Shown here piece by piece: positions 4,401 to 54,278 of a stretch of 64,000 nt of DNA; the first letter of the stretch is position 1; each line of letters begins with the position of its first letter. The notes beneath the pieces were generated by a model that saw only the letters and a list, made by a program, of their open reading frames with translations, made no database searches and had not been told where the DNA came from. This DNA comes from Kofleriaceae bacterium (GTDB lineage: Bacteria; Myxococcota_A; Polyangia; Haliangiales; Haliangiaceae). Where the stretch lies: the NCBI GenBank assembly GCA_035715365.1, contig DASTLB010000022.1, positions 208,242 through 272,241 of the forward strand, written 5' to 3'. A program made the translations under genes and the position numbers.

Positions 4401-6353
4401 GTGGGCTTCACCGTCGACGCCACCGCGCCGGACTCGCGCGCTCGCAGCGCGACGCTCGTCACGCCCCACGGTGCGATCGAGACGCCGGTGTTCATGCCGG
4501 TCGGGACCCGCGGCACGGTGCGGACGCAGACGCTCGCTCAGCTCGAGCAGCTCGGCGCGCCGATCCTGCTCGCGAATACCTACCACCTCTGGGTCCGTCC
4601 GGGCCGCGCGGTGTTCGAGCAGCTCGGCGGGCTGCACCGGTTCATGGGGTGGTCGCGCGCGCTGCTGACCGATTCGGGAGGCTTTCAGATCTTCTCGCTG
4701 CCCGGGACGCGCGTGGCGGAGGACGGTGCCGAGCTCGACGGTCAGTGGCTGACGCCGGAGAGCTCGATCGCGATGCAGACCGCGATCGGAGCCGACATCA
4801 TGATGGTCCTCGACCACTGCGTCGCTGCGAAGAGCTCGCACGCCGAGGCGCGCGATGCGATGGACCGCACGCATCGCTGGGCACGCCGCAGCCTCGCGGC
4901 ACGCACGACCGTGCAGCAGCTGTTCGGGATCGTGCAGGGCGCGTGTGTACCGGAGCTGCGGCGCGAGAGCGCGGCGGTCGTGACCGCGCTGCCGTTCGAC
5001 GGCTACGCGATCGGCGGGCTCGCGGTCGGCGAGACGCGCGCCGAGCGGCAGGACATGACCGAGCTCGTGACGGACCTGCTGCCGCACGACCGCCCGCGCT
5101 ACCTGATGGGCGTCGGGACGCCGCTCGATCTGCTCGAGGGCGTGCACCGCGGCGTCGATCTGTTCGATTGCATCCTGCCGACCGCGCTCGCGCAGCAAGG
5201 TGTCGCGTTCACGTCGCGTGGCCGGATCGAGCTCGATCGCGGCGTCCACCGGCTGTCCGAGGTCGCGCTCGATCCGCGGTGCGACTGCGCGGCGTGCACG
5301 CGGCACTCGCGCGCGTACCTGCATCACCTCGTCAAGTGCAAGGAGCCGCTCGCGTGGCAGCTGCTCGCGACGCACAACCTCGCATTCTATCTGCGCCTGA
5401 TGTCCGATATCCGGACCGCGATCCGCGCCGGCACGTTCGCGCGGTTCGTCGTCGAGCAGCGCCCGATCCTCGGCGCCGCCGATCTCGATCATCCGCCCGG
5501 CAAGCATCCGCGCAAGAAGCGCGGCAAGCCGACCGCGCGCGGTGCGTTCGCGCTCCACGTCGATCCGGCGCGCGAGCGCGCGAGCATCCGCCACGTCGCG
5601 TCCGGCGAGATCATGCACTCGGTCAACGATCCGGACGTCGAGGCCGAGCGGATCTACATCGATCAGTCGCGCCGGATCGCGCACGCGCTCGCGAGGGCGA
5701 CGCCGCTCGTCGTCTGGGATGTCGGGCTCGGCGCGGCGCACAACGCGATGGCGCTCGTGCGCCGGCTCGCCGGTCGCGACGTGCCGTGCACGCTCGTCAG
5801 CTTCGAGCGCGATCTCGACGCGCTCCGGCTCGCGGTCATGCACACCGGCGCGTTTCCGCACCTGCGCCACGAGGCGCCGCATCGCCTGCTGCACGCGGGC
5901 CACTACGCGCGCGACGGCCTGACGTGGGTGCTGCGCGAGGGCGACTTCCTCGACCATCTCGACGCGGCGCCGCGGCCCGACGTGATCTTCTACGATCCGT
6001 TCTCGACGAAGGTCGACGGTCCGCTGTGGTCGTTCGCGACGCTGTCGCGGCTGTACGCGGTGCTCGCGCGCGAGCCGCGGCCGTGCGAGCTGTTCACGTA
6101 CACGACGTCGACCGCGGTGCGCACCGCGCTGCTCGCGGCCGGGTTTCACGTCGCGTGCGGCGTCGCGTCGGGCCCGAAGGCGGAGACCACGATCGCGCTC
6201 GTCCATCCCGAGCCCGGCGAGCACGCGTGGCTCGGCGCGGACTGGCTCGATCGGCGCGCGCGGTCGACGGCGCGTTGGCCTGCCGACGGCGATCCGGCAC
6301 AGATCGAACGCGCGCTCGCGGCGCACGCGCAGTTCCAGGTGCCACGTGGCTGA
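4401..6353 (+). CDS. tgt: Queuine tRNA-ribosyltransferase (Tgt) fused to a C-terminal MnmC-type (DUF752) SAM-methyltransferase-like domain
   Basis: Tgt motifs are present: RARSATLVTPHGAIETPVFMPVGT, DSGGFQ, GGLAVGE and a Zn site CDCAAC...H. The C-terminal roughly 250 aa align by eye to the E. coli MnmC N-terminal domain: VVWDVGLGAAHN~ETGFGTGLN, LVSFERDLDAL~FISFEKFPL, DVIFYDPFSTKVDGPLWS~DAWFLDGFAPAKNPDMWT, ELFTYTTSTAVRTALLAAGF~[20 protein letters not shown]. The start is chosen at GTG 4401 (MGFTVDATAPDSRARS, like E. coli MKFELDTTDGRARRG). The track start at 4350 is an alternative. Confidence 0.8.
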   Translation: MGFTVDATAPDSRARSATLVTPHGAIETPVFMPVGTRGTVRTQTLAQLEQLGAPILLANTYHLWVRPGRAVFEQLGGLHRFMGWSRALLTDSGGFQIFSLPGTRVAEDGAELDGQWLTPESSIAMQTAIGADIMMVLDHCVAAKSSHAEARDAMDRTHRWARRSLAARTTVQQLFGIVQGACVPELRRESAAVVTALPFDGYAIGGLAVGETRAERQDMTELVTDLLPHDRPRYLMGVGTPLDLLEGVHRGVDLFDCILPTALAQQGVAFTSRGRIELDRGVHRLSEVALDPRCDCAACTRHSRAYLHHLVKCKEPLAWQLLATHNLAFYLRLMSDIRTAIRAGTFARFVVEQRPILGAADLDHPPGKHPRKKRGKPTARGAFALHVDPARERASIRHVASGEIMHSVNDPDVEAERIYIDQSRRIAHALARATPLVVWDVGLGAAHNAMALVRRLAGRDVPCTLVSFERDLDALRLAVMHTGAFPHLRHEAPHRLLHAGHYARDGLTWVLREGDFLDHLDAAPRPDVIFYDPFSTKVDGPLWSFATLSRLYAVLAREPRPCELFTYTTSTAVRTALLAAGFHVACGVASGPKAETTIALVHPEPGEHAWLGADWLDRRARSTARWPADGDPAQIERALAAHAQFQVPRG

Positions 6354-8935: not shown

Positions 8936-10078
8936 ATGCGCACAGCCGTCCTGTGTGTGCTCGCGATCGGCTGCAAGTTCGAGCCGAGCCCGGCCGGTGA
9001 TGGCGGTGCGATCGGCGATGTCCCGCGCGACCTGCCCGACACGCCCGGCGGCTGCCAGTCGTACTCGACGCAGTTCGACACCTGCACGGTCGTGCCGCCC
9101 GGTGGCCCCGGCGCCGCGCTGCTGCTGAACGGCAACAACACGTACGACACCGACAGCGGCAACCTCGTCACGCCCGCGGGCTCGGTCGCGGTCACGCATC
9201 TCCAGGTCACGTCGCCCGCCGGCAAGATCGACGTCGTGTTCGTCGATGGCTTCACGCTCGGGACCGGCGCCACGCTGCGCGTCGACGGCGGGTTGCCGTT
9301 CGGGATCGCGTCGACCGGCGAGCTACGCGTCGACGGCTTGATCGATCTGTCCGACGACGGCGCGGGTGCGCGCAGCGACACCGCGTGCGCGGGCTCCGTC
9401 GGTGCGGACGCGAGCAATCGCAGCGGCGGCGCCGGCGGTGGTGGCGGCGGTGGTTTTCAGGGCACCGGCGGCACCGGCGGTCCCGGCGACAAGGACGGCG
9501 GCCCGGTCGCGGGTGCGGCGGGCGGCGTCGCGATCGCGTTGCCCGCGGGGCTCGTCGGCGGCTGCGACGGTGGGGGCGGCGGCGATGGTCAGGGCGGCGC
9601 GAGCGGCGGCAGTGCCGGCGATGGCGGCGGCGCGGTCCTGCTCGCATCGGCAACCGCGGTGCGGATCAGCGGCGCGATCAACGTCGGCGGCGGAGGCGGC
9701 GTGCGCGGTGGCGGCAACGGCGCGAGCGGCGGCGGTGGCGGCTCGGGCGGGATGATCCTCGTCGAGTCACCGCTCGTCGAGGTCAGCGGCGTGCTCGCGG
9801 CGAACGGCGGCGGCGGCGGTGAAGGCCAGACCACCGGCCAGAGCGGTAGCGTCGGGCTCGCCTCGGATCAGCCCGCGCCCGGCGGTGCCGGTGGCGATCC
9901 CGACGGCGGCGATGCCGGCAACGGCGGCGCGGGTGCGTCGCTCGCGGGCGGCTCGCCGGCCGATCTGCAAGATGGCGGCGGCGGTGGTGGCGGCGGGGGC
10001 GTGGGCTACGTCGGCATCCACTGCCCCGCGCCGACGATCAGCGGGATCGTGTCTCCCGCGGTCACGACGATCCCCTGA
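8936..10078 (+). CDS. Glycine-rich secreted lipoprotein, hypothetical
   Basis: The internal Met gives MRTAVLCVLAIGC with a lipobox. About 35% Gly, with runs of up to 10 Gly (GGGGGGGGGVGY). Possibly a beta-helix or adhesin-like protein. Confidence 0.5.
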   Translation: MRTAVLCVLAIGCKFEPSPAGDGGAIGDVPRDLPDTPGGCQSYSTQFDTCTVVPPGGPGAALLLNGNNTYDTDSGNLVTPAGSVAVTHLQVTSPAGKIDVVFVDGFTLGTGATLRVDGGLPFGIASTGELRVDGLIDLSDDGAGARSDTACAGSVGADASNRSGGAGGGGGGGFQGTGGTGGPGDKDGGPVAGAAGGVAIALPAGLVGGCDGGGGGDGQGGASGGSAGDGGGAVLLASATAVRISGAINVGGGGGVRGGGNGASGGGGGSGGMILVESPLVEVSGVLAANGGGGGEGQTTGQSGSVGLASDQPAPGGAGGDPDGGDAGNGGAGASLAGGSPADLQDGGGGGGGGGVGYVGIHCPAPTISGIVSPAVTTIP

Positions 10079-18965: not shown

Positions 18966-19904
18966 GTGACGCACTCTCCCGACGGCGAGGACGTGTTCGC
19001 CGTGCTCGGCCTGCCGCGCGACGCGGAGCCGGAGACCGTGCGGCGCGTCTATGCCGACCTCGCGTTTCGCTGTCTCCCCGGGGTGAATCCGCCGGACGAG
19101 GCGGCGAGCGAGAAGCTGAAGCAGGCGACGCGCGCGTTCCAGATCTGGGCGCGCACGAACCCCGAGCGCGTCGCGGCGGTGATCGATCGCGAGACCCGCG
19201 CGATCTTCGATCTGATGGGCAACTTCTTCGGCGCGCCATCGATGCGGCGCGGCGGCGATCGCTACACGCGCGTCACGATCGCGTTCGTCGAGGCGCGCGA
19301 CGGCTGCGTGCGCACGATCGACGTGCTGCGCAAGCTGCCGTGCACGCGATGCGCGGGCACCGGCGCGCAGTACGGCGATCTGTATCCATGCGCGAGCTGC
19401 CGGCAGACCGGTCACCGCGCGCGACACGGTACGATCGGGCCGTGTCGCGATTGCGACGGCCGCGGCTGGTACGCGGATCTGCCGTGCGACTCGTGCGAAG
19501 GCGGGCTGCTCGAGGCGGTCGATCCGGTCGCGGTCCCGATCCCCGCGGGCGTCACGACCGGTCACGTGATGCGGATCCCGGGCCGTGGCGATCACGCATT
19601 TCGCGCGCCGCCCGGCGATCTGTACCTGACCGTCGAGGTCGATGCGATCGGCCACCTCGTGCGCCGCGACGACGACGTGGTGTTCGAGACGATCGTCACG
19701 CGCCGCCACCGGCTGTTCGGCGGCTCGCTCGAGGTGCTGACGCTCGACGGACCGACGACGATCCAGGTCCCGCGCGGCGTCCGCGACGGCGACACGCTCG
19801 TGCTCGCAGGCAAGGGCCACGCGCGCAGCTCGCAGCCGACCGGCGATCCATATCGCGGTGGGCCAGCGCGCGGCGATCAGATCATCGTGTTCCGCCGCCG
19901 CTGA
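18966..19904 (+). CDS. DnaJ-like protein with a degenerate J-domain (no HPD) and a four-CxxC Zn-finger domain
   Basis: J-like N-terminus VFAVLGLPRDAEPETVRRVYADLAFRCLPGVNP, where HPD is replaced by LPG. Four CxxCxGxG motifs (CTRCAGTG, CASCRQTG, CRDCDGRG, CDSCEGG). DnaJ C-terminal-like beta region. Confidence 0.7.
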   Translation: MTHSPDGEDVFAVLGLPRDAEPETVRRVYADLAFRCLPGVNPPDEAASEKLKQATRAFQIWARTNPERVAAVIDRETRAIFDLMGNFFGAPSMRRGGDRYTRVTIAFVEARDGCVRTIDVLRKLPCTRCAGTGAQYGDLYPCASCRQTGHRARHGTIGPCRDCDGRGWYADLPCDSCEGGLLEAVDPVAVPIPAGVTTGHVMRIPGRGDHAFRAPPGDLYLTVEVDAIGHLVRRDDDVVFETIVTRRHRLFGGSLEVLTLDGPTTIQVPRGVRDGDTLVLAGKGHARSSQPTGDPYRGGPARGDQIIVFRRR

Positions 19905-19978: not shown

Positions 19979-21946
19979 GTGTCCGCCGCGATGACGAGGA
20001 CGAGTGCTCTCTGGATGGCTCTGCTGCTGGCGGCGTGCGGCGGTGGAGATCGCGAGCTCGCCACGCCGGCGCGCTGCAACCCGCTCGGCGGCACGCGCTG
20101 TGTCGCGCCATGGCCTTCGGCGATCTACGAGGTCGACGACGCGACGACCGCGAGTGGCCGCCGGGTCGCGATCCCGGATGGCGCGCTGCCGACGAACATC
20201 GACGGCATCGCGATCGATCCGGCGCGGTGGAACGGCCAGGACGGCTTCTCGTCGGCCGCACCGATGCTGATGGCGTTCCCGACCGGCATCGACGGCTCGA
20301 ACCTCGTGCACTACACGAACTACGCGGCGAGCACGACCGACGCGAGCCCGACCGTGCTGATCGACATGTCGACCGGCGAGCTCGTCCCGCACTTCGCCGA
20401 GCTCGACGCGCCCGCGGCAGACGATCCCGCGAGTCAGGCGCTGTTCATCCGCTCGGCGCAGCTGCTGAAGGGCAGCACGCGCTACGCCGTCGCGATCAGG
20501 AAGACGCTGAAGGCGAAGGACGGCAGTGACCTGCCGATCCCGGAAGGCTTCCAGGCGATCCTCGACGGCGCGCCGACGACGCACGACCTGCTCGAGGCGG
20601 TGCGGCCGCGCTACGCGGACATCTTCGCGGCGCTCGAGGCGAAGGGCATCGCGAAGACCGACCTCGTCGTCGCGTGGGACTTCACGACCGCGTCGCGCGA
20701 GTCGGTGCGCGCCGATCTGCTGAACGCGCGCGACACCGCGCTCGCGATGATGGGCACCGACGGCGCGAACCTGACGTTCAGCGTCACGAGCGACGTCCCG
20801 CAGGGCGACGTCCGGATCGCGCGCCGGATCGACGGCGAGTTCGATGCGCCGCTGTTCCTCTCCGACGGCAGCGCGATCGCACCACCGAGCGTGACGCTGC
20901 TGCGCGACGCGGCGGGCAAGCCGATGGCGAACGGCCTCTACCGCGTGCCATTCACCGCGATCATCCCGCAGTGCGCGATCGACTCGACGACGCCGGTGCC
21001 GATGATCATCTACGGCCACGGTCTGCTCGGCGATGCGGAGCAGGTCGCGAGCTCGGGCACCCGCCACGCCGCGGCCGGTGTGTGCGCGGTCGTCGTCGGC
21101 ACCGACATGCGCGGCATGAGCGACGTCGACGTGCCGAACGTCGCGCTCGCGCTCAACGACGCGAACCACGGCGGCCTGATCTTCGACGTCCTCGTCCAGG
21201 GCATGATCAACCACGTCGCGATGGTGCAGATCGCGCGCGGCCCGATGGCGCAGACGCTGTTCACGCGCACCGGCGGCGGCTCGCTCGTCGATCCGTCGAA
21301 GTTCTACTACTACGGCATCTCGCAGGGCGGGATCATGGGCACGACGGTGTGCGCGATCGATCCGGTGATCGAGAAGTGCGTCGTCCAGGTCGGCGCGATC
21401 AACTACTCGACGCTGCTCGAGCGCTCGCGCGACTGGCCGACCTATCGCACGACGCTGTCCGGCGCGTACCCGAACGCGTTCGACGACGCCCTGATCATCA
21501 ACCTGATGCAGAACCAGTGGGACCGCACCGAGCCGACCGGCGTCGCCGACGTGATCCTCGGCGAGGGCTTCCCGGGCACGCCGAAGAAGCAGGTGTTCAT
21601 GCAGATCGCGATCGCCGACGACGAGGTCTCCAACGTCGCGAGCGAGTACCAGGCGCGCACGATGGGCATCCCCGTCCTGACGCCGTCGCCGTACATCCCG
21701 TTCGGCCTCGAGTCGACCTCGACGCCGGTCGGCAGCGGCATGATCATCTACGACTTCGGCCTCGGCGCGACGATCCCGCTGACGAACGAGGCGCCGCCGG
21801 ACAACGACGTGCACTCGAACATCCGCAACAAGCAGGCCACCGTCGACATGATGAAGCGGTTCTACGAGACCGGCGAGATCGTCCAGATGTGCACGGCGCC
21901 GACCGGCTGCGACTGCACCGTCGGCGGCTGCGGCGCGCAGCTCTAA
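19979..21946 (+). CDS. Secreted lipoprotein, alpha/beta-hydrolase-like (GxSxG)
   Basis: Signal peptide with lipobox (MALLLAACGG). GISQGG nucleophile-elbow-like motif. 655 aa. Family not recognised. Confidence 0.55.
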   Translation: MSAAMTRTSALWMALLLAACGGGDRELATPARCNPLGGTRCVAPWPSAIYEVDDATTASGRRVAIPDGALPTNIDGIAIDPARWNGQDGFSSAAPMLMAFPTGIDGSNLVHYTNYAASTTDASPTVLIDMSTGELVPHFAELDAPAADDPASQALFIRSAQLLKGSTRYAVAIRKTLKAKDGSDLPIPEGFQAILDGAPTTHDLLEAVRPRYADIFAALEAKGIAKTDLVVAWDFTTASRESVRADLLNARDTALAMMGTDGANLTFSVTSDVPQGDVRIARRIDGEFDAPLFLSDGSAIAPPSVTLLRDAAGKPMANGLYRVPFTAIIPQCAIDSTTPVPMIIYGHGLLGDAEQVASSGTRHAAAGVCAVVVGTDMRGMSDVDVPNVALALNDANHGGLIFDVLVQGMINHVAMVQIARGPMAQTLFTRTGGGSLVDPSKFYYYGISQGGIMGTTVCAIDPVIEKCVVQVGAINYSTLLERSRDWPTYRTTLSGAYPNAFDDALIINLMQNQWDRTEPTGVADVILGEGFPGTPKKQVFMQIAIADDEVSNVASEYQARTMGIPVLTPSPYIPFGLESTSTPVGSGMIIYDFGLGATIPLTNEAPPDNDVHSNIRNKQATVDMMKRFYETGEIVQMCTAPTGCDCTVGGCGAQL

Positions 21947-21947
21947 C

Positions 21948-22181
21948 GGGGTCAGGCTACACTTCGTCAACCAGGCGGCGCACAACCCCCTGAAATCCTG
22001 TGCCCCATCGGGGACAGGCTACACTTCGTCAACCTGCGCGCGGCGCTATCGCAACGCCGATGCAGATGCAGATGCAGCCCGCCTGCGTCTACCAGGTTGA
22101 GCAAGTGTAGCCTGTCCCCGATCGCGTGTGCGATTTCGGCGACTTGCAGCGCGCCTGGTTGAGCAAGTGTAGCCTGACCCC
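21948..22181. repeat. Nested inverted-repeat element: two direct copies of GGG(G/T)(A/C)AGGCTACACTTCGTCAACC (21948-21972, 22010-22034) and two inverted copies (22095-22119, 22157-22181)
   Basis: Seen directly. The arms pair outer with outer and inner with inner (GTCAGG/CCTGAC versus GACAGG/CCTGTC). A (GATGCA)3 microsatellite sits at the centre. The element lies between convergent genes, 2 nt after the stop of the hydrolase gene. Confidence 0.85.
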
Positions 22182-22182
22182 A

Positions 22183-23157
22183 TTACATCGGGTGAGCGAG
22201 GAAGAACTGCATCACCTGCTCGCCCCACACGAACGAGTTCGGTAGCACGCACGGGATCGCGTACTGCGGCGCGTACGGATCGGTCGTGCTGCCCGGGATG
22301 CAGTGGCCACGGGCAGAGCCGAACGGTCCGTCGGCGACGGTCTCGTACGCGTGGTCGAAGGTCTCGATCACCGACGAGCCGGTCCATCGATCGTGGGTGT
22401 ACGTCGCGTCGCCGTCGAGCGGGGTCGGTGCGCCGGCGCCGTAGGCGGCGATCGCGGCGTCGCGGATCTGCACCATCGACGCGTAGCCGACCGACGCGTC
22501 GGTGCGGCCCATGAGGAACGCGATCGGGATCGGACGCGCCGGCGTGCGCCCCGGCGTGAAGCAGGTCTCCTCGCCGAAGCTCGCGCCGTTGCCGGCGCCG
22601 GCGGGCGCGGCGGACGCGAACAGGTCCGCGTGATCGCACAGCAGGCGCCACGTCACGAAGCCGCCGCGCGAGAACCCGGTGACGTGGATCTTCGTCGGAT
22701 CGACGCGGAACACCGCCGCGAGCTGCTGCACGAGATCGACGAGCATCGCGTCGTTCGTCGCCTCCCACGTCGAGCCCGGGAAGCCGCCGCCGAACGGCGG
22801 ACCGGTCGGCGCGGCGACGATGTAGCCGTGCTGCTCGCCAAGATCGCGCAGCCGGACGTGGCCGTCCATCAGCAGGCCGTTGCCGGTGTCGCCGTGGAGG
22901 ACGAGGATCAGGCCGCAGCCGGGCTGCTGGCAGGCCGCGGGGATCCGCGCGTCGACCGCGAGCCCGCTGCACGTGTACTGGTGATCGCCGGTCGCGACGT
23001 CGGTGATGCAGCCGGCGGGCACCGGTGGATCGACCGAGGCGCCGTCGCCGGGCGGCGGCATGTCATCGGATTCGACGGTGCCGCCGCAGCCGATCAGGAG
23101 CGCGAGCGCGAGGACGACGACGATACGCACGGCGCCAGTATCGCTCGAAGCCGCCAC
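22183..23157 (-). CDS. Esterase/PHB-depolymerase-family lipoprotein (LpqC-like)
   Basis: Signal peptide plus lipobox (LLIGCGG). GFSRGG (GxSxG) motif. LILVLHGDTGNG. Confidence 0.6.
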   Translation of the reverse strand: MAASSDTGAVRIVVVLALALLIGCGGTVESDDMPPPGDGASVDPPVPAGCITDVATGDHQYTCSGLAVDARIPAACQQPGCGLILVLHGDTGNGLLMDGHVRLRDLGEQHGYIVAAPTGPPFGGGFPGSTWEATNDAMLVDLVQQLAAVFRVDPTKIHVTGFSRGGFVTWRLLCDHADLFASAAPAGAGNGASFGEETCFTPGRTPARPIPIAFLMGRTDASVGYASMVQIRDAAIAAYGAGAPTPLDGDATYTHDRWTGSSVIETFDHAYETVADGPFGSARGHCIPGSTTDPYAPQYAIPCVLPNSFVWGEQVMQFFLAHPM

Positions 23158-23158
23158 A

Positions 23159-24355
23159 TCACGGGGTGATTCCGATCGCCCCGCCGATGTTCTCGAGGCC
23201 CATGCCGAACGCGAGCGAGCCGAGGTCGGTGACGTTGCCGTCGGGCGTGAACGCGAGGTGGCGGATCGACACGTTCTCCGAGATGAAGACGTGGCCGCGC
23301 AGCGTGCCGCGATCGATCGCGGCGAGATCGCCGGGGAGCTGCGGCCGGCCGCCGGCGTAGCTGACCTCGGTCGCCGCCCACGTGCCCGTCGCGCCGGGGG
23401 CGAGCACGAAGATCTTGTCGCCGAGCGCGCTCGTCACGATCGCCTTCGTGCCGAACGGCGAGGCGGCGATCGCCTGTGGATCCTCGACGAGGACCTGGCC
23501 GGCGGACGTCATCGTCGTGCCGGTGATGTCGACGATCTCGACCCGGTTCGGCTGATCGCCGAACGCACTGGTGTCGCCGACGAGGTAGTGCATGCCGTCC
23601 GTGGTCAGCGCGGAGCCGCCGACGATCGCCATGTCGTCGCCGAACGCGTCGACGCCGCCGACGAGCGATGGCGTGTCGCTCCAGTCGAGCAGCTGGACGT
23701 CGTCGCCGGCCTTCGCGCCGGTGAGGATGTCGCCCGCGGCGACGATCGCGCGGTTGCCAGCGAGCGCCATCCCGCCGGGCAGCTTCGCCGCGGCGACGAG
23801 CCCGCGATCGACGACCGTGCCGTCGCAGTTGATGTCGACGCGGTAGATGCCGCCGCCGTTCTCGCGCGTGTTGCCGTCGAGCACGTACGCGCGATCGCCG
23901 CGCGGATCGACGTAGATGCGCGTCGCGTAGAAGCTGCCGGCAAGCCCGGCGTCGATCACGCGTGGCATCCCGGCGGCGTCGAGCTCGAACACCGCGAGCT
24001 TGCCGTCCTCGGTCGCGACGAGGCCGATCTTGCCGTCGGGCGTGAACGCGATCTGGCCGAACGACGTCCGCGCGAGCGAGAAGATCCGGTTCGGCGTGGG
24101 CCGCGTCAGCTCGCCGGCCGCGGACAGCTCGAGCACCTCGAACGTGTCCGCGCCCTGCCCCGCGGTGTCGTACGGGTGCGAGACCACGACGTAGCGCGTG
24201 CGGTCGTCGGCCGCCGGTGCGCGCGGACAACCGCTGCCGGCGTCGGGCGAGCTGTCACTGCCGCCGTCGGGCGTGGGGTTGTTCGCGTCCGATCCACCGC
24301 ACGCGGCGAGCGCGGCGACCAGCACGTAGCAAGTCCTCATCATCCAGTCGACCAT
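23159..24355 (-). CDS. Beta-propeller lipoprotein, hypothetical
   Basis: Lipobox VAALAACGG. Repeated blade-like segments (DGKIGLVATEDGKLAVFELD, AIVAAGDILTG...). The gene starts 1 nt before the downstream esterase gene. Confidence 0.55.
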   Translation of the reverse strand: MVDWMMRTCYVLVAALAACGGSDANNPTPDGGSDSSPDAGSGCPRAPAADDRTRYVVVSHPYDTAGQGADTFEVLELSAAGELTRPTPNRIFSLARTSFGQIAFTPDGKIGLVATEDGKLAVFELDAAGMPRVIDAGLAGSFYATRIYVDPRGDRAYVLDGNTRENGGGIYRVDINCDGTVVDRGLVAAAKLPGGMALAGNRAIVAAGDILTGAKAGDDVQLLDWSDTPSLVGGVDAFGDDMAIVGGSALTTDGMHYLVGDTSAFGDQPNRVEIVDITGTTMTSAGQVLVEDPQAIAASPFGTKAIVTSALGDKIFVLAPGATGTWAATEVSYAGGRPQLPGDLAAIDRGTLRGHVFISENVSIRHLAFTPDGNVTDLGSLAFGMGLENIGGAIGITP

Positions 24356-24403
24356 CGCGGCGCATCCTGCAACAGGTCGCGGCCGCGGCGGGAGCGAAAT
24401 CGG

Positions 24404-24568
24404 TCAGGGTTTCGTCGACGAGCGCTGCTGCTTTTCGGTCTCGGCGAGCGTCTTCTCGACCTCGCGTGCGTGCTCGCTGCCGACCTTCTCGCGCATCTCA
24501 CCGAGCGCGCGGCGCGCCTCGGGAACGGTCATCGAGCCCTTCGCGATTTCGATGCAGATGAGGCACAT
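24404..24568 (-). CDS. Small hypothetical protein (54 aa)
   Basis: The last 54 codons of track ORF 24404-25609, MCLICIEIAKGSMTVPEARRALGEMREKVGSEHAREVEKTLAETEKQQRSSTKP, fill the gap between two real genes. The composition is protein-like. There is no homology evidence. Confidence 0.3.
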   Translation of the reverse strand: MCLICIEIAKGSMTVPEARRALGEMREKVGSEHAREVEKTLAETEKQQRSSTKP

Positions 24569-24585
24569 GGCCAAGCGTAGCCCGG

Positions 24586-25806
24586 TTACGCCTTCTTCGC
24601 CTTCGCCCGTCGCATGACGACGAGGTGAGGCCGCAGCTTGCCGTCGGGATAGCCGAACCGGAACGCGAGCGGCCGCGCGGGTTGCGACTTGAACAGCGCC
24701 TTCCACTGCGGCGTGACGTACTTGCCCGCGTGCATGTTCGAGCTCTCCCACGTGCCGTACGTCTCGTACTCGAACCCGGCCGGCGTGCCCTCGGCCGGCG
24801 CGAGCCCGGTCGTGTCCGACACCATCCAGTCGACGTGGTCGATCACGTAGCGTCGCATCGTCGAGAACTCGGGGAACGTCAGCAGGTAGCTCGCCGCCTT
24901 CGTCATCGCCGCGACGTGGCCCTTCGCCTCGAGGTGGAGCAGCGGCGCCTTGTACTTCGCGAGGTGCGGATCGTCGAGGTTCGCCATGATGTGGCGATAG
25001 ATCTGCTCGTGCTTGCTGCCGGGCTTCTTGAACCGCAGCTCGACGTTCGCGAACTGGCGATTGCGCCAGCCCGCATCGCTGACGCGCTCGGCGCGCGCGG
25101 CATCGGCGTCGGTCAGGTAGTGCAGCTCGCCTTTCGGCGTCAGCTGGAAGTACTTCATCCCGACGAGCTCGTAGCCGTGCATGTGCAACGCGGACAGGCT
25201 GAAGATCAGCTGCGTCGGCAGCTGGCCTCCGCGCATCGCGTTGATCATGTTCATCGTCTTCGAGAAGTTCGACGTGTAGAGCGACTCGAGCTCGGTCGCG
25301 ACGGTCGCGAGCGCCGCCGCCTTCTGCTTGTCGGCGAGGCGGCCGAGCGCGCGGGGATCGCCGGCGGGCTCGAGCGACAGCGTCGTGATCTCGTCGGCGT
25401 CGGGATACACGGTGAGCGCGGTCGACAGATCGCCGCCGGCGAACGGATACACGACGGTCTTCGGCGCATCCGCAGGCACGTGCGCCTGGAAGAACGTCCG
25501 CGCCGGCGCGAGCCACGACTTGCGGTACGCGTCCTGCGCCGCGCGTACCTTCTTGCAGTGCGCGTCGACGAGCTCCTGCTTGACCTGCGTCTGCTTGCCC
25601 TCGGCACACGCGCCGACGACGAGCAGCGTCTGCGCCTCGGCCAGAAACTCCTGCGGAACCGGCTCCGGTCGCGGCGGCTCGGCCTTCGCCTTGTCGGTCG
25701 CCTTGCCGGGCTTGCTCGGCAGGTCATCGGCGCGCACCGTCGACACGTCGCGGGACACGGCGCAGACGAGGCCCAGCGCGACCACCAGCTTTCGCATGGC
25801 CCGCAA
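24586..25806 (-). CDS. Secreted protein, paralogue 2 of the VYPFAGGDL family
   Basis: 406 aa, with a signal peptide. Strong identity to 28067-29209 and clear similarity to 799-2082. Confidence 0.7.
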   Translation of the reverse strand: MRAMRKLVVALGLVCAVSRDVSTVRADDLPSKPGKATDKAKAEPPRPEPVPQEFLAEAQTLLVVGACAEGKQTQVKQELVDAHCKKVRAAQDAYRKSWLAPARTFFQAHVPADAPKTVVYPFAGGDLSTALTVYPDADEITTLSLEPAGDPRALGRLADKQKAAALATVATELESLYTSNFSKTMNMINAMRGGQLPTQLIFSLSALHMHGYELVGMKYFQLTPKGELHYLTDADAARAERVSDAGWRNRQFANVELRFKKPGSKHEQIYRHIMANLDDPHLAKYKAPLLHLEAKGHVAAMTKAASYLLTFPEFSTMRRYVIDHVDWMVSDTTGLAPAEGTPAGFEYETYGTWESSNMHAGKYVTPQWKALFKSQPARPLAFRFGYPDGKLRPHLVVMRRAKAKKA

Positions 25807-25923
25807 TCTGCCACGCCGCGGGTCGCGGGTGCACGCGTTCGTGATGTGACCTGCGCCATCCCTCGGAGCGTTCCCGATCTTCGTGCTGGACCTGCGAAAC
25901 CGTCCTGCCTACGCTGCCGGGCG

Positions 25924-26844
25924 ATGCGCGCCGTCGGGCTCGGGTTCGCGATCGCGGTCGGCCTCGCCGGCTGCACCGTCCAGCGCGACTACGCACCGCC
26001 GGATGCGCCCGGCACCGACGGCTATCCGCCGCCGCGCACCGATCTCGTGCCGGCGATCGGCAGCCCGACGACGCTCGAAATCGCGACCTGGAACATCGAG
26101 AACTTCCCGGACACGTCGCTCACCGCGTCGTACGTCGCGGACGTGATCGCGAGCCTCGATCTCGACATCGTCGTCGTCGAGGAGATCGCGAGCGAGACCG
26201 CGTGGGCCGAGCTGCTCGAGCGGCTGCCCGAGCACGACGGCGTGCTGTCGACGCACACGTACTCGCCGACGGAGTACCAGAAGATCGGCATCGTCTATCG
26301 CAGCTCGCTCGTCACGGTCGGCGCGCCCACGCTGCTGTTCACGAACGACGCGTACGCGTTCCCGCGGCCGCCGTTCTCGATCCCGGTCACCGTCGACGGC
26401 GACACGTTCGAGGTGATCGGCGTGCACCTCAAGGCCGGCGGCGCGCTCGAGGACGCGCAGCGCCGGACGCTCGCGGTCGCCGCGCTCGACCAGCACCTGC
26501 GCGACCAGATCGACAGCGGTGGCGAATCCGAGGTGATCGTGCTCGGCGATTACAACGAGCGCGTCACCACCGACGACAGCCGCGCGGTGCTCGCGCCGCT
26601 TCTCACCGCGCCGGATCGCTACAACGTCCGCACCGAGCCGTCCGCGCTCGCCGGTGGCGTCACGTACCTCGGGTTCGGCGGCACCTGGATCGATCACATC
26701 ACGACGACGTCGGGGCTCGCGAGCTGGTTCGGCGCCGCGCGCGTCGTCGTGCCGCGGCTCGACGCGATGATCCCCGGCTACCGCTCGACGATCAGCGACC
26801 ACCTGCCGGTCGTGATGGTCGTCGATCGCCCGCCTGTCCGGTAG
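25924..26844 (+). CDS. Endonuclease/exonuclease/phosphatase (EEP)-family lipoprotein
   Basis: The real part of track ORF 24625-26844 gives MRAVGLGFAIAVGLAGC with a lipobox. ATWNIENF and SDHLPV EEP-type motifs. Confidence 0.6.
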   Translation: MRAVGLGFAIAVGLAGCTVQRDYAPPDAPGTDGYPPPRTDLVPAIGSPTTLEIATWNIENFPDTSLTASYVADVIASLDLDIVVVEEIASETAWAELLERLPEHDGVLSTHTYSPTEYQKIGIVYRSSLVTVGAPTLLFTNDAYAFPRPPFSIPVTVDGDTFEVIGVHLKAGGALEDAQRRTLAVAALDQHLRDQIDSGGESEVIVLGDYNERVTTDDSRAVLAPLLTAPDRYNVRTEPSALAGGVTYLGFGGTWIDHITTTSGLASWFGAARVVVPRLDAMIPGYRSTISDHLPVVMVVDRPPVR

Positions 26845-26858
26845 CCGCGTGTGGAATC

Positions 26859-26953
26859 GGGGACAGGCTACACTTCGTCAACGTGGCGCAGCGCAAACGC
26901 GCGATCACCCGTGGTCTGTCCCCGCGTTGGTTGACGAAGTGTAGCCTGTCCCC
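26859..26953. repeat. Second copy of the inverted-repeat element: GGGGACAGGCTACACTTCGTCAAC (26859-26882) and its exact reverse complement (26930-26953), separated by a 46-nt spacer
   Basis: Seen directly. The arms are a perfect 24-nt palindrome. The element lies between convergent genes (the EEP lipoprotein gene ends at 26844 and the GGDEF gene ends at 27007). Confidence 0.85.
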
Positions 26954-27006
26954 TGTCCGGGTTGCTCGCGCTCCGTCACGGGCGCGGGCACGGTCACGGG
27001 CACGGC

Positions 27007-27996
27007 TTAACCGCGCTTCTGCGCCTGCTTGTCCGCGGTGACCTGCGCCATCGCGCGCGCGAACAGCGAATCCGCAGTCTCCTCGGGAGCCTGTACGCCG
27101 ACGACGCCGAAGCTCGCGGTCAGCGCGCCCTTCAGCAGCTTCGCCTCGGCGATGTGCGCGCGGCAGCGCTCGGCGACGATCCGCGCACCCTCGGCGGAGG
27201 TTCCGGGCATGACGAGCGCGAAGTCCGCGGCGTTGATCCGGAAGCAGCCATCGATCGCGCGCGTGTTCTTCGCGAGGATCGCGGCGAGCATGCGCAGCGC
27301 CTCGTCGCCGGAGGCCTGGCCCATGCGATCGATCGCGGCCTCGAGCCCCGCGAGATCGAGCAGCGCGAGGCTGAACGAGTGGCCGTAGCGCCGGTTGCGC
27401 GTCAGCTCGGCCTGCATGCGCTCGTCGAACGCGCGCTTGTTCCCGAGCCCGGTCAGCGGATCGTGCTCGGTGTCCGGCTTCGGCTTGGGATACGTGTACG
27501 CGCGGTGCAGCGCGATCGCGATCGTCTGCGCGAGCAGCCGCAGCGTCTCGACATCCTCGTCGGAGAACTTCGCCTTGTCGGCCGACACGACCTCGAGCAC
27601 GCCGACCGCGCTCTCGCCGTACAGCAGCGGCACGCAGACGAGCGAGCCCGACCCGCTGCGCGCGAGCGTGTCGGCGTCGACCCGCGGATCCTTGGACGTG
27701 TCGTCGATCCGGATCGGCGCGCGCTCGGCGATGCAGCGGCTGGGTGCGCTCTGGCCGCTCGCGAGCCGGGTGCCGATCTGCAGCGTGCTCGGCCGTGCGA
27801 CCGCGCGATAGACGATGTCGTTGCCCTCCACCATCGCCACGACCCCGCCGGTCGCTCCGGTCAGCGCGGCCGCGCGCTCGACGACGATCGCCATCACCTC
27901 GTCCGCGTTCATCCCGGCGGCCGCGATCGCGTTCTGGAGCTCGATGACCGACAGCAGGCGCTCGGGGCTGGGAGTGACCGCCATTGCCTGCATCAT
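27007..27996 (-). CDS. GAF-domain protein with a degenerate GGDEF domain (GGDEF replaced by NAADF)
   Basis: N-terminal GAF-like region. HDPLTGLGNKRAF is the start of a GGDEF domain. The active-site position reads RINAADFALVMP, so it is probably not an active cyclase. Confidence 0.75.
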   Translation of the reverse strand: MMQAMAVTPSPERLLSVIELQNAIAAAGMNADEVMAIVVERAAALTGATGGVVAMVEGNDIVYRAVARPSTLQIGTRLASGQSAPSRCIAERAPIRIDDTSKDPRVDADTLARSGSGSLVCVPLLYGESAVGVLEVVSADKAKFSDEDVETLRLLAQTIAIALHRAYTYPKPKPDTEHDPLTGLGNKRAFDERMQAELTRNRRYGHSFSLALLDLAGLEAAIDRMGQASGDEALRMLAAILAKNTRAIDGCFRINAADFALVMPGTSAEGARIVAERCRAHIAEAKLLKGALTASFGVVGVQAPEETADSLFARAMAQVTADKQAQKRG

Positions 27997-28066
27997 ACAT
28001 GACGTGCGCTGGCGCGCGGGCGACGCGACCGGCGTCGACGATGCGCCACCTACACGCGGCTCCGGC

Positions 28067-29209
28067 TCAGGCCTTCTTCGACCGCCGCATGATGATCAGG
28101 TTGTGGTGGAAGTTCACGTCCGGGTAACCAAAGCGGAATTTGAGCGGCCGCTTCGGCTGCGCCTTGAACTCCGCGACCCACGACGGAGAGATCGGCGCGC
28201 CGGCATCCATCTCCGAGCGCTCGAACGTCCCGTAGGTCTCGTACTGGAAGCCCGCCGGCTTGCCCCACTTCGGCGCGAGCCCGCTCGCATCCGACACCAT
28301 CCACTCGACGTGCTCCGCGAGGTACTTGCGCATCGTCTGGAAGTCGTCGAACGACAGCAGGAAGCTCGCGGCCTTCGTCATCGCCGAGACCTGGCCCTTC
28401 TTCTCGATGTGGCGCAGCGCGGCCGGCTCCTTCTTGAGGTGCGCGTCGTCGAGGTTCGCCATGATGTGGCGATACGTCTGCTCCTTCGTCGCGCCCTTCT
28501 TGCGGAACTTGAGCTCGACGTTCGCGAGCTCCTTGTTGCGCTTCGTCGTGTCCTTGATCTGGTCGATGCGGTCGAAGTCCGCCGCCGTCAGGTAGCGAAT
28601 GTCGCCCTGGTCGGTGAGCTGGAAGTACCTGAGCGACGTCGGCTCGTAGCCGTGCAGCCACAGCGCGGACAGGCTGAAGATCAGCTGCGTCGGCAGCTGG
28701 CCCTCGCGCATCGCGCCGATCATCGCCATCGTGCGCGAGAACGTCGCCTTGTACAGCGACGACAGCTCGGTCGCGACCGTGCCGAGCGACGCCTTGATCT
28801 GCGCCTCGGATAGCTTGTCGATCGCGCGCGCGTCACCGGCCGGCTCGAGCGACAGCGTCGTGATCTCCTCGGCGTCCGGGAACACCGTCAGCGCGGTCGA
28901 TAGATCACCGCCCGCGAACGGATAGACGACGGTCTTCGGGATGTCGGTCGGGACGGCGGTCGCGAAGAACTCGCGCGCGACCGTGATCCACGACTTCTTG
29001 TACTCGTCCTGCGCCGCCTTCACCTTCTTGCAGTGGGCGGTGACGATCTTCTGGCTGACCTTCGCGGGCGTGCCATCGGCGCATGCCCCGACGACGAGCA
29101 GCTGCTTCGCCTGCTCGATGAATTCCTGCGGCGCCTGGGCCGGCGTGTCCGCGTGTGCACGCGCGACGCCGACAACCAGGCCGAGAGCAACCACCCACGA
29201 ATGACGCAT
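28067..29209 (-). CDS. Secreted protein, paralogue 3 of the VYPFAGGDL family
   Basis: 380 aa, with a signal peptide. The closest paralogue is 24586-25806. Confidence 0.7.
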   Translation of the reverse strand: MRHSWVVALGLVVGVARAHADTPAQAPQEFIEQAKQLLVVGACADGTPAKVSQKIVTAHCKKVKAAQDEYKKSWITVAREFFATAVPTDIPKTVVYPFAGGDLSTALTVFPDAEEITTLSLEPAGDARAIDKLSEAQIKASLGTVATELSSLYKATFSRTMAMIGAMREGQLPTQLIFSLSALWLHGYEPTSLRYFQLTDQGDIRYLTAADFDRIDQIKDTTKRNKELANVELKFRKKGATKEQTYRHIMANLDDAHLKKEPAALRHIEKKGQVSAMTKAASFLLSFDDFQTMRKYLAEHVEWMVSDASGLAPKWGKPAGFQYETYGTFERSEMDAGAPISPSWVAEFKAQPKRPLKFRFGYPDVNFHHNLIIMRRSKKA

Positions 29210-42273: not shown

Positions 42274-43032
42274 TCACCGAGTCATCGCATCGGGTGCGCG
42301 CACGAGCTCGCGCGGGATCCGTCGCCACGTCGCGCCGCCGGTTGCCGCCGACGTCTTCTCGATCTTCAGCGTGTAGTTGCCGGTCGAGTTGCCGATGTTG
42401 CGCACGACGACGAACACGTGGCCGCCGATCTGCTGGACGTCGGTCTGCAGTGCCTCCGGCATGCTCTCGCCGGCGTTGTTCGCGACCGCGAGCGGCTCGC
42501 CGATCTGGCCGTACGCCTCGAGCTTGACATCGATCGTCGCGGTCGGCGTCGCCGTGAACGTGATCGTGCCGAGCGTGTTGAGCTGGACGAGGAACAGGTC
42601 CGCGTCCGCGAGTGGCGTCAGCGCACGCGTCACGCTGTCACCGACGGTGACGATCGCGTCGTCCGGATCGTTGCCGGTGTCGATCGTGCCGAAGCACGCG
42701 TTCTGACCGCCGTTGATCGGCACGCAGAACGCATCGACGTCCTTGCAGTCGTTCGCGACCGCGAGCGAGCACAGCCGCGAGCACTTGAACTGTCCGGCGG
42801 TCTCTCCGACGCACACGCCGCTCGCACATTCATTGCCGGCGACGCAGGACTCGCCGAAATCCTTGAGCGGCGGCGGCGGCGGCGGTGGCGGCGGCGGTGG
42901 TGCATCGGGCGGCGGCGGCGGCGGCGGTGGCGCGGCGTCGGGCGACGGCGTCTGACCGCCTCCGCCATCGCACGCGACGACGGCAGAGACCAGGGAGAGG
43001 GCGAGAGCAGACAGGACGAACGAACGAAGCAT
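42274..43032 (-). CDS. Pro-rich, Cys-rich lipoprotein, hypothetical
   Basis: Lipobox SAVVAC. PPPPPPPPPDAPPPPPPPPPPP linker. Nine Cys in the following domain. Confidence 0.55.
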   Translation of the reverse strand: MLRSFVLSALALSLVSAVVACDGGGGQTPSPDAAPPPPPPPPDAPPPPPPPPPPPLKDFGESCVAGNECASGVCVGETAGQFKCSRLCSLAVANDCKDVDAFCVPINGGQNACFGTIDTGNDPDDAIVTVGDSVTRALTPLADADLFLVQLNTLGTITFTATPTATIDVKLEAYGQIGEPLAVANNAGESMPEALQTDVQQIGGHVFVVVRNIGNSTGNYTLKIEKTSAATGGATWRRIPRELVRAPDAMTR

Positions 43033-51902: not shown

Positions 51903-52259
51903 ATGCTGGGATTGCCGATCGAGCCGTGCTCGATGGCACCGATCACCGGGTGGTTCCGGACCGGCTGCTGCGAGACCGACGACAACGACGTCGGCCGCCA
52001 CGTCGTGTGCGTCCAGCTGACCGCGGAATTCCTCGCATTCTCGAAGCGGCGCGGCAATGATCTGTCGACCCCGCAGCCCGGATTTCCGGGGCTGTCGCCG
52101 GGCGATCGCTGGTGCATCTGCGCGGCGCGCTGGCACGAAGCATACGTCGCGAACGTCGCGCCACCGGTCTATCTCGCCGGCACGCACGAGTCGGCGACCG
52201 AGGTCATCGATCGTGCGGCGCTGATCGCGCACGCGCTCGACGCCCACCACCTCAACTGA
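51903..52259 (+). CDS. DUF2237 family protein
   Basis: MLGLPIEPCS...TGWFRTGCC...VGRHVVCVQLTAEFL...GNDLSTP...GDRWCICAARW. Confidence 0.55.
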   Translation: MLGLPIEPCSMAPITGWFRTGCCETDDNDVGRHVVCVQLTAEFLAFSKRRGNDLSTPQPGFPGLSPGDRWCICAARWHEAYVANVAPPVYLAGTHESATEVIDRAALIAHALDAHHLN

Positions 52260-52921
52260 TGCCACGAACGGTGTCGAAGCCGCGCGCGAAAGCCGTGCGT
52301 CCGGGCGGGCGCACGAAACCAACCGCGACCGCCGACGGACCGATCTACTTCGAGCGCGCCGACGCCTTCGGCGCCTGGCTCGCGGCGCATCATGGAGATC
52401 GCGACGAGCTGGTCGTCGGGTTTCACAAGCGCGGCAGTGGCACACCGAGCATGACGTGGCCCGAGTCCGTCGAGCAGGCGCTGATCTATGGCTGGATCGA
52501 TGGCGTCCGCCGCAGCATCGACGCGAACCGCTACACGATCCGGTTCACGCCGCGCCGGCCCCGCAGCATCTGGAGCGCGAAGAACATCGCGACCGCGACC
52601 GCGCTCGTCGCGAGCGGCCGCATGCAGCCGGCGGGGCTCCGCGCATTCGAAGCGCGCAGCGCGAACCGCTCCCGCGTGTACTCGTTCGAGCGTGCGCAGG
52701 CGGCGACGCTGGCACCCGCCGACGAGCTGCGGTTTCAGGCGAACGCGAAGGCGTGGTCGTACTTCCAGGACCAGCCGCCGTGGTACCGCCGCACCGCGTT
52801 TCACTGGGTGATCAGCGCGAAGCGAGCCGAGACCCGCGAGTCCCGGCTCGCGACGCTGATCGCCGACTCCGCCGCCGGCCGCTGGATCAAGCCGCTGCGC
52901 GCCCGCCCCGGAAAGCGCTGA
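52259..52921 (+). CDS. YdeI/OmpD-associated family protein
   Basis: Starts at the ATG overlapping the upstream TGA (TGATG). YFQDQPPWYRRTAFHWVISAKRAETRESRL C-terminal block. Confidence 0.5.
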   Translation: MPRTVSKPRAKAVRPGGRTKPTATADGPIYFERADAFGAWLAAHHGDRDELVVGFHKRGSGTPSMTWPESVEQALIYGWIDGVRRSIDANRYTIRFTPRRPRSIWSAKNIATATALVASGRMQPAGLRAFEARSANRSRVYSFERAQAATLAPADELRFQANAKAWSYFQDQPPWYRRTAFHWVISAKRAETRESRLATLIADSAAGRWIKPLRARPGKR

Positions 52922-53098
52922 TCAGTGGAGACGCGGTGGGCGGCGAGCAGCGCTTGTCGCGGTCGTGTCGCAGGGTGCAACCACGCGGCACTCCAACCGA
53001 CTTCGGTCCGGCGACGGCGACGCGACAAAATATGCGCGGCGATGTCGAAACGAGACCTCCTCGTTCGTCTTCCAAGTGCAGCCCGGGAGCCGTTGGTC

Positions 53099-53350
53099 AT
53101 GGAATCGCTCGCCCTGTCCGTCGTTTGCGTGCTCGCCGCCGTCGCCGCGTTCGCGGTCGCGTGGCGACGCGGGCATCATGCGATCGCCGAGGCGGTCGAG
53201 CCGGCCGGCGAGGAGCCCTCCCCGTGCCCCGCGAGCTCGGCGGCATTCGCGCAGACGTGGCTCGCGCTCCAGGCGCAGATCGCCGCCGCGGATGCGATGG
53301 CGATCGGCCACCCGCCCCTGATCACGCGCGTCGAGTGGTCGTCGCCGTGA
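53099..53350 (+). CDS. Small hypothetical membrane protein
   Basis: The internal Met of track ORF 52925-53350 is followed by a hydrophobic helix LALSVVCVLAAVAAFAVAW. Weak support. Confidence 0.3.
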   Translation: MESLALSVVCVLAAVAAFAVAWRRGHHAIAEAVEPAGEEPSPCPASSAAFAQTWLALQAQIAAADAMAIGHPPLITRVEWSSP

Positions 53351-53354
53351 ACGC

Positions 53355-53663
53355 TTACTGCCGCGCGCCGGCGCACACCTCGGCCGCGCGATCGGCTCCG
53401 ATGTTCTCCGCACCGACGAGCAGGCAGTTCTTCGCGCCGGGCTCGCACTGCTTCGCGCACGTGTGCTTGTCGATGTCCCACTGACACGACGCCGCGATGC
53501 AGCCCTGGCAATCCTTCGCCGCGCACGGCTCCGGCGCCGGCGCCGGCTCGGTCGTCACCGGCGTCGCGCTCTGATTCGACGGTGGCGTCGCGGTCGGCGC
53601 GGACTTGCCGCCGCACGCCGCAACGAACGCGATCCCCCACAGCGCTGCACGAAGCGTTCGCAT
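53355..53663 (-). CDS. Small Cys-rich lipoprotein
   Basis: The internal Met gives MRTLRAALWGIAFVAACGG with a lipobox. Nine Cys in the mature ~85-aa region (CAAKDCQGCIAASCQW...). Confidence 0.5.
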   Translation of the reverse strand: MRTLRAALWGIAFVAACGGKSAPTATPPSNQSATPVTTEPAPAPEPCAAKDCQGCIAASCQWDIDKHTCAKQCEPGAKNCLLVGAENIGADRAAEVCAGARQ

Positions 53664-53758
53664 CGCCGGGGACGCTATCACGAGTATCCACGATGCCCGT
53701 GTTCGCACGCGCTGCGGTTTTCCGCGCGGGTGTCGTGGATCGACGTAAACTGGTCGTG

Positions 53759-54271
53759 ATGCAGCGTGGTTGGTTGGGGGCTCTGCTGATCGTCGGCGCG
53801 TGCGGCCCTGACCGCGTCGACGACTTCATCGGCCGCTGGGCGTTCTCGCGCGACGCGACGACGCGGACCGCGAACTGCACGAACGGGATGGAGGATCGGA
53901 CGCGGGCGATCGGCGGCGTCGAGCTCGAGATCGAGTACGGCATGGATGCCGACCTCGTCGTCCACGGCGGCTGGTACGACGAGACCTGCATGGTGCGGTT
54001 CGATGTCGACGGCAGCTCCGCGGACGTGCTCGTCGGCGAGCAGTGCAGCTGGACGATCGACACCCGCAGCGCGACGACGACCGGCACGCTCACCTACGTT
54101 CGGTTCCAGCTCGACCTCACCGACACGCAGCTCCTGAGCTTGCATGGCGGAGGCACCTCGACCGTCGAGGCGACCGAAGGCGGGGGTCAAGGATCCGATC
54201 GCGCTTCCGTACCGACCGTGCAGTGCGACGAATCGCTGCGCGGCAGTGCGACCTGGGTCAGCTACTTCTGA
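53759..54271 (+). CDS. Lipoprotein, hypothetical
   Basis: The internal Met of track ORF 53582-54271 gives MQRGWLGALLIVGAC with a lipobox. Confidence 0.5.
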   Translation: MQRGWLGALLIVGACGPDRVDDFIGRWAFSRDATTRTANCTNGMEDRTRAIGGVELEIEYGMDADLVVHGGWYDETCMVRFDVDGSSADVLVGEQCSWTIDTRSATTTGTLTYVRFQLDLTDTQLLSLHGGGTSTVEATEGGGQGSDRASVPTVQCDESLRGSATWVSYF

Positions 54272-54278
54272 TCGCCCG

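Follow-up and report, generated by a model that had tools for sequence, protein, structure and literature searches.

Long hairpin DNA built from one 25-nt module in two convergent-gene gaps of an uncultured Kofleriaceae myxobacterium

Introduction

Many bacteria carry small palindromic repeat elements, and the transcribed stems of REP, ERIC and Correia elements are known as barriers to read-through and to 3' exonucleases. Correia elements, the MITEs of Neisseria, measure about 100-155 bp, carry 26-bp terminal inverted repeats and duplicate TA. A REP within ~15 nt of a stop codon can reportedly impede terminating ribosomes, an effect ascribed to work of Liang et al. from 2015. By definition, each 20-40-nt REP unit is an imperfect palindrome with a GTAG or CGTC tag at one end (PMC3733652). 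REPs and REP doublets prefer convergent and unidirectional gene junctions, and many of them are plausibly transcribed (PMC3733652; PMC5581495). The passages of PMC5581495 on their function cite roles in transcription termination and translation regulation, and REPs are cited as gyrase targets in passages of both papers.

Here we report that two convergent-gene gaps in an uncultured soil Kofleriaceae myxobacterium carry long hairpin DNA made from one module, which is a fairly ordinary example of the small palindromic repeats. The study follows up an original prediction, made from the DNA letters of one of these junctions, and covers a window of 64 kb (by which we mean the whole stretch of DNA that was analysed; G+C 70%) together with nine orthologous loci of relatives (L010-L018, 135.6 kb).

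Results

The four module copies that had been predicted within 21948-22181, two direct and then two inverted, are present as described and constitute element E1 (Table 1). A second element, E2, is a single hairpin whose arms are the perfect 24-nt inverted pair already noticed 4.7 kb away, at 26859-26953. Altogether three hairpins are built from six module copies, with the inner E1 hairpin at the apex of the outer one; the elements measure 95, 110 and 234 nt and their arms 24-25 nt. E1 starts 1 nt past a stop codon (21944-21946) and ends 1 nt short of the convergent stop (22183-22185), so that it occupies the entire 236-nt intergenic region and adjoins coding sequence on both sides; the position directly after a stop codon at a convergent junction had been foreseen for one end, and a stop lies equally near at the other. 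The two genes next to E1 share the register in which they end (TAAY/GGGG), and four of the six TAA stops among 44 window genes lie around E1 and E2 (21944-27009); this clustering and register may reflect an AT-rich target preference or chance.

Table 1. Elements, modules and neighbouring genes, in window coordinates
Feature	Position	Strand	Remarks
Upstream gene, locus 1	20015..21946	+	643-aa conserved hypothetical protein; TAA, 1 nt before E1
E1	21948..22181		nested double hairpin of four modules; fills convergent gap
U1	21948..21972	+	left arm of outer hairpin, GGGGTCAGGCTACACTTCGTCAACC
Spacer s1	21973..22009		37 nt; 21/37 positions complementary in register to s1'
U2	22010..22034	+	left arm of inner hairpin, GGGGACAGGCTACACTTCGTCAACC
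Inner-hairpin loop	22035..22094		60 nt; holds (GATGCA)3.2
U3	22095..22119	-	right arm of inner hairpin; GC at positions 18-19
Spacer s1'	22120..22156		37 nt; diverged inverted partner of s1
U4	22157..22181	-	right arm of outer hairpin; T at position 5, GC at 18-19
Convergent gene, locus 1	22183..23157	-	alpha/beta hydrolase; TAA, 1 nt from E1
Upstream gene, locus 2	25883..26844 (start approximate)	+	endonuclease/exonuclease/phosphatase-family protein; TAG, 14 nt before E2
E2	26859..26953		single hairpin, 46-nt loop; second convergent junction
E2L	26859..26883	+	module
Partial extra module end	26916..26923		CTGTCCCC, in E2 loop
E2R	26929..26953	-	module, same sequence as U2
Convergent gene, locus 2	27007..27996	-	GAF-GGDEF diguanylate cyclase; TAA, 53 nt after E2

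The equal length of the two E1 spacers places the inner hairpin precisely at the apex (ATC/GAT) of the outer one, and since the spacers are complementary in register (shuffle p = 1e-4) the outer arms are really 62 nt long. Taken as a whole, E1 forms a palindrome whose 93-nt arms are 77% complementary, and the central microsatellite of the original prediction, (GATGCA)3.2 at 22059-22077, lies on its symmetry centre, within an inner loop that is not palindromic and does not align to the other loops. Immediately before U2, spacer s1 also carries CCTGTGCCCC, a degenerate and inverted copy of the module end, and a further TGTCC follows E2 directly at 26954-26958.

The proposed RNA folding returned extreme values for both strands of E1 (z about -13.5), each folding into one long nested hairpin: -153.1 kcal/mol with z = -13.5 for the plus strand and -167.5 kcal/mol with z = -13.7 for the minus strand. 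The whole 162-nt gap at E2 reached z = -5.5 as RNA, and as single-stranded DNA the inner E1 hairpin and E2 scored between -8.5 and -10.3 (E2 hairpin alone: -8.7 and -10.3). For a lone module the folding energy is 0 to -0.3 kcal/mol, a value that shuffles reach as well, and it forms no hairpin by itself. Between E2 and the GGDEF stop, at 26964-26989 and within a CACGG repeat run, there is an additional, unrelated hairpin rich in GC, GCTCGCGCTCCGTCACGGGCGCGGGC, which could represent the 3' structure native to that gene.

An ordinary long bidirectional intrinsic terminator would likewise offer a highly stable hairpin on either strand and a position between convergent genes. However, such a terminator consists of a short GC-rich hairpin and a T/U run behind it, and here no T-run follows the E1 or E2 stems; terminator-like sites number 0 in 21000-28000, and canonical ones are enriched nowhere in the window. 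The same junction in 8 of 9 relatives has overlapping genes or at most 34 nt, and a 230-nt nested stem that reuses the module of another locus exceeds a terminator's needs. We therefore hold this explanation to be very unlikely, in line with the earlier view that E1 is not a simple terminator.

Since the source is a metagenome-assembled genome represented by a single assembly, a false palindrome produced in short-read assembly had also to be weighed. Against it, E1 is internal to a 620-kb contig and intact syntenic genes end exactly at its borders, its arms are imperfect with patterned differences, and the module recurs in a second, differently built hairpin, all of which makes an artefact scarcely credible.

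The 25-nt module can be written as GGGG[A/T]CAGGCTACACTT[CG/GC]TCAACC, and its extended consensus, ATCGGGGACAGGCTACACTTCGTCAACC, is asymmetric and 25-28 nt long. Scanning the window with the 25-mer GGGGACAGGCTACACTTCGTCAACC as reference at up to 3 mismatches gave the six copies against 0.00 expected from 100 dinucleotide shuffles, and a 12-nt core of the module gave the same outcome; a sensitive blastn-short search found no seventh copy or fragment in the 64 kb. When the six modules are aligned with their flanks, the 25 nt and an invariant A at -3 are kept and conservation fades beyond them. Any two modules differ at 0-4 of 25 positions, and U2 and E2R, which belong to different loci, are identical.

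The covarying arm position of the original prediction is confirmed: the two outer arms of E1 have T at position 5 and the other four modules have A, so that pairing is kept. A second difference had been overlooked, namely GC at positions 18-19 in both right arms of E1 (U3 and U4) where the rest have CG, which leaves a 2-nt mismatch in each E1 stem. On a simple duplication tree position 5 conflicts with positions 18-19, and reconciling them takes gene conversion, a template switch or a compensatory change at least once.

Everything around the modules is far less stable. Within the outer hairpin the modules differ at 2 of 25 positions and the adjacent spacers at 16 of 37 (Fisher p = 0.004), and this much smaller divergence of modules than of spacers and loops indicates that the modules are constrained. 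The flanks and interiors of the two loci are unrelated, and the modules alone are common to both. Ten of the 12 comparisons between loops or spacers fall at shuffle p 0.08-0.94; the remaining two, at p = 0.002 and 0.04 before any correction for 12 tests, come without a usable alignment.

Constraint of this kind could also come from the host. Gyrase and IHF binding to the BIMEs of E. coli provides the model for it: asymmetric 25-nt sites in inverted pairs would attract, at convergent junctions, a DNA-binding factor that is nucleoid-associated or manages topology, and the hairpin would be secondary. It would be consistent with a module sequence that is kept while its surroundings drift, with the lack of structure in a lone module, with the spacing of module centres in E1 (62, 85 and 62 nt, or ~6, 8 and 6 helical turns), and with REPs being known gyrase targets, as cited in passages of PMC3733652 and PMC5581495. 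However, at position 5 it is pairing that the change maintains, not a single fixed sequence, the module is not present at the six other convergent junctions of the window, the relatives have no such site at the conserved genes, and no candidate binding protein was identified. Taken together, we judge a host-selected binding module to be unlikely.

Comparison with relatives suggests how E1 came into its gap. The module is absent from all nine relatives' loci, even at 7-8 mismatches, and in 8 of the 9 the stop of the upstream ortholog overlaps the next gene or lies at most 34 nt from it, which points to insertion of E1 where only a few nucleotides had separated the genes. Neither flanking gene has lost its C-terminus; the stop of the upstream gene is at the same position as in its orthologs, and the C-terminus of the hydrolase is conserved as well. 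On this evidence, E1 is a lineage-specific insertion that damaged neither neighbour. The 643-aa product of the upstream gene is 100% identical to the Kofleriaceae MAG protein VFQ53_08750, the next best match being 80%, and a search for conspecific fragments with its C-terminal 119 aa found none above 85% identity in the collections searched.

At both sites the nearest long relative, L010, has an additional gene, a paralog of a 380-aa protein at the E1 site and a 738-aa gene at the E2 site, so that both elements lie at synteny breakpoints. Three paralogs of a ~380-470-aa protein without a Pfam domain lie in the window, all on the minus strand (799-2205, 24586-25806 and 28067-29209), with 65-81% nucleotide identity in parts; L010 and L014 have two copies each. 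In relatives one of these paralogs is usually convergent with the 650-aa gene, and in the window it is relocated.

Breakpoints at both loci make a local, non-mobile origin possible. Fold-back or template-switch replication together with slippage would have built the array at one junction, and the module would have been moved to the second by ectopic duplication or gene conversion while genes were rearranged within this 7-kb region, with no genome-wide family. It fits that the only two loci in 64 kb lie 4.7 kb apart and that each is where L010 has an extra gene. Template-switch 'quasipalindrome correction' is an established process, and it would give the complementary T/A change without selection. 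Locus-specific arrays of relatives, described below, are made of quite different units, which suggests that arrays can grow in place. On the other hand, the two loci share no alignable sequence beyond the modules, and U2 equals E2R across loci while the spacers of one hairpin are down to 57%, a combination that is difficult to explain unless some sequence-specific maintenance operates. Extra events are required here too to reconcile position 5 with positions 18-19. A purely local origin is a serious alternative that we nevertheless consider somewhat unlikely.

The arrays in question show that complex hairpin arrays at convergent junctions recur in this bacterial family, each with its own unit. 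The clearest is in L015 (GCA_028287135.1, JAQBQE010000019.1, 11950-12330), where a nested hairpin array (RNA fold z = -7.3) separates the ortholog of the locus 1 upstream gene from a YjbR gene convergent with it. Like E1 it has direct and then inverted copies of a ~25-nt unit and a perfect inner hairpin; unlike E1 it has longer arms, a 109-nt tandem duplication on its left side (95% identity) and a unit, AACCGCCAAGGCGCCGCGGACGCCA, that is unrelated to the window module. In L013 (GCA_033612695.1) an M14 peptidase gene and a P-family gene converge on a 258-nt palindrome at 19087-19344, which is made up of tandem GTGATCGTGGAC-like units of 12-18 nt and has 105-nt arms with 86% complementarity, and L012 (GCA_030155825.1) has another large hairpin at a convergent junction (2583-2712). 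Large palindromes at convergent junctions of these relatives indicate that such elements recur in the family.

Several observations belong beside these loci. A 40-aa gene had been called within the L013 palindrome. L012 has at 2460-2712 three direct copies of GGCGCCTGAAGGCTC, which repeat the stop-codon region of the upstream VWA gene and are followed by the hairpin, with 33-nt arms of CGCCAAG sub-repeats. L015 contains, at 4680-6000 in a ~2 kb non-coding stretch, 4-5 copies of a ~58-nt repeat (GCTGCACGCGCGAGCGGCCTGACGCAGAACGCGAGC...) and a recurring palindrome, TGTGCACACGTGTGCA. The hairpin units of L012 and L015 have CCGCCAAGG in common, a marginal likeness, as both strands of 340 kb would be expected to contain it ~5 times; it is unrelated to the window module.

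Searches for a wider family and for an enzyme gave little. When 185,579 species genomes, the JGI metagenomes and IMG/VR were scanned with the 19-nt exact core CAGGCTACACTTSSTCAAC, the only matches were isolated chance ones in low-GC DNA without the GGGG prefix, and blastn of E1 against PLSDB plasmids gave microsatellite and low-complexity matches only. No autonomous insertion sequence with module ends was found in the window, and the module was unmatched in PLSDB, the genomes, the metagenomes and the viral contigs. Pfam scans of ~45 window ORFs found no transposase (Y1_Tnp included), RAYT or integrase; these ORFs are ordinary chromosomal genes (TGT, PFK, GDH, DnaJ, MinCD, Dus, RNR, Ser/Thr kinases). 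The curated covariance models of Rfam 15 had no hit with E up to 1 across 21000-28000, nor did any reach gathering score over the full window, and tRNA genes are absent. Target-site duplications, which the original prediction had suggested as a sign of mobility, were looked for and found at none of the three hairpins at lengths of 2-9 nt, TA, TWA and 5-bp Tn3-like duplications included; the flanks read CTAAC/ATTAC, CCATC/GATCG and GAATC/TGTCC. A limited full-text literature search on REP/RAYT in Myxococcota yielded nothing relevant.

Elsewhere in the window, ~2 kb at 52260-54280 are without any ORF of the high third-position G+C typical of the genome, a weak OmdA-domain ORF (52112-52921) being the sole one recognised around it, and long GGC-rich (Gly-rich) coding repeats at 9420-10020 and 42865-42950 are common to two distant genes.

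Discussion

From our analysis it would be reasonable to suggest, with a probability of roughly 0.5, that E1 and E2 together represent three copies of a REPIN/MITE-type element, a lineage-specific inverted repeat that forms hairpins and the ends of which may be recognised by an enzyme. Each copy would be a pair of asymmetric 25-28-nt end modules (ATCGGGGACAGGCTACACTTCGTCAACC) around a variable interior, and the modules would serve as recognition sites for a transposase- or recombinase-like enzyme that acts in trans and is encoded elsewhere in the genome. Such an enzyme would spread or maintain the modules without target duplications, with a preference for gaps at gene 3' ends and for hairpin tips. 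The constancy of the module ends is most simply explained by recognition through a trans-acting, sequence-specific enzyme. In favour of this reading are the six modules where shuffles predict none, their constancy amid diverged spacers and loops, the relatives' junctions that lack them between intact genes, the central place of the inner E1 hairpin between equal spacers, the extreme folds on both strands, the other large palindromes at convergent junctions of relatives and the known placement of REPs. Against this stand the restriction to two loci only, 4.7 kb apart within 64 kb and both at synteny breakpoints relative to L010, the lack of a target-site duplication, the lack of a transposase, RAYT or integrase gene in the 64 kb, interiors that are unrelated, unlike those of a recently copied MITE, and a module that is unmatched in the public collections scanned.

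One may go further and suppose that the module is the substrate of a new mobilisation system of the Kofleriaceae lineage, which places hairpin pairs precisely into the small gaps between convergent stop codons and into hairpin tips (and hence into itself) without target duplication, keeps the ends constant while the interior turns over, and has counterparts with other modules in related lineages, as in L015. We mention this as a speculative extension that is improbable in its full form.

The possible effect on the neighbouring genes follows from position. As E1 is 1 nt from both stops, both mRNAs would be expected to run into it. Once transcribed, E1 may form a perfect-to-near-perfect RNA stem of about 110 bp, which by analogy with the palindromic repeats named at the outset could act as a U-tract-independent barrier to read-through and 3' exonucleases, and it may also hinder ribosomes that terminate at the adjacent stops. 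Such elements mark transcript 3' ends, can alter the expression of both neighbours, and are recombination and assembly break points in large GC-rich genomes. If the module turned out to be dispersed through the whole genome as a family, Kofleriaceae (Myxococcota) would have their first described interspersed hairpin repeat; our limited full-text literature search brought up no other. The family would also be unusual, with only the asymmetric 25-nt ends conserved and no target duplication, a combination that would point to a trans-acting enzyme. At present E1 and E2 are a small lineage-restricted repeat with three copies known, the function of which we infer by analogy.

How far the likeness to REPs and MITEs goes can be seen class by class. 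The REP/MITE-like character assigned to E1 by the original prediction stands as regards hairpin doublets, terminal inverted repeats and size, and falls as regards a palindromic unit, target duplication and a shared interior. The closest resemblance is to REPINs: two inverted ~25-nt repeats around a short spacer form a hairpin, they are extragenic and lie at gene 3' ends and convergent junctions without target-site duplication, the repeat sequence is lineage-specific, and GTAG occurs on one module strand (GTGTAGCC) and CGTC on the other. All three pairs form the larger hairpin of inverted REP doublets (z -5.5 to -13.7). In contrast to REPINs, the module is not a palindrome by itself (MFE 0), its GTAG/CGTC is internal and not at the foot of the stem, the window has no RAYT, and spacers are wholly different between copies. 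A palindromic single unit with terminal GTAG or CGTC is thus missing, and strict REP membership fails on the first of these counts. A 'GTAG + stem' can be read at U2 (CCTGTGCCCC-ATC-GGGGACAGG) and is absent at the other five modules, for which reason we did not adopt a GTAG-REP reading.

MITEs are matched in terminal inverted repeats and small size, and Correia elements in particular are resembled in that 95-234-nt elements with 24-25-nt terminal inverted repeats are intergenic, form hairpins, lie within transcripts and can have nested copies. The differences are that target-site duplications are lacking, that interiors are unrelated and not conserved from one progenitor, and that no parent insertion sequence is known; the first two exclude strict MITE membership. 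The outer end of E1 (GGGG) and its size of ~230 nt presumably resemble the ends of Tn3-family transposons and TIMEs, but conservation here ends at 25 nt and not at 38, there is no inner TAAG, and the 5-bp flanks (CTAAC/ATTAC and GAATC/TGTCC) are not duplicated. An integron attC site is recognised by RYYYAAC ... GTTRRRY core sites at its outer ends, by arrays that all point one way and by an integrase nearby; in E1 and E2 the GTCAAC/GTTGAC lies on the loop side of the arms and not at the outer ends, and the window has no integrase, so this assignment was rejected. A 5-kb composite transposon bounded by E1 and E2 was rejected as well, because L010 has the same four-gene block without the elements.

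With ERIC/IRU sequences E1 and E2 have in common that they are imperfect palindromes of large size, lie in intergenic DNA that is transcribed and lack a known transposase, and with BIMEs and NIMEs the mosaic of short conserved modules and variable linkers. They differ from all of these in module order, which is direct-direct-inverted-inverted and not alternating, in having no sequence similarity to them, and in coming from another phylum, the Myxococcota. E1 and E2 are therefore best filed as a new family within the known class of bacterial intergenic palindromic repeats.
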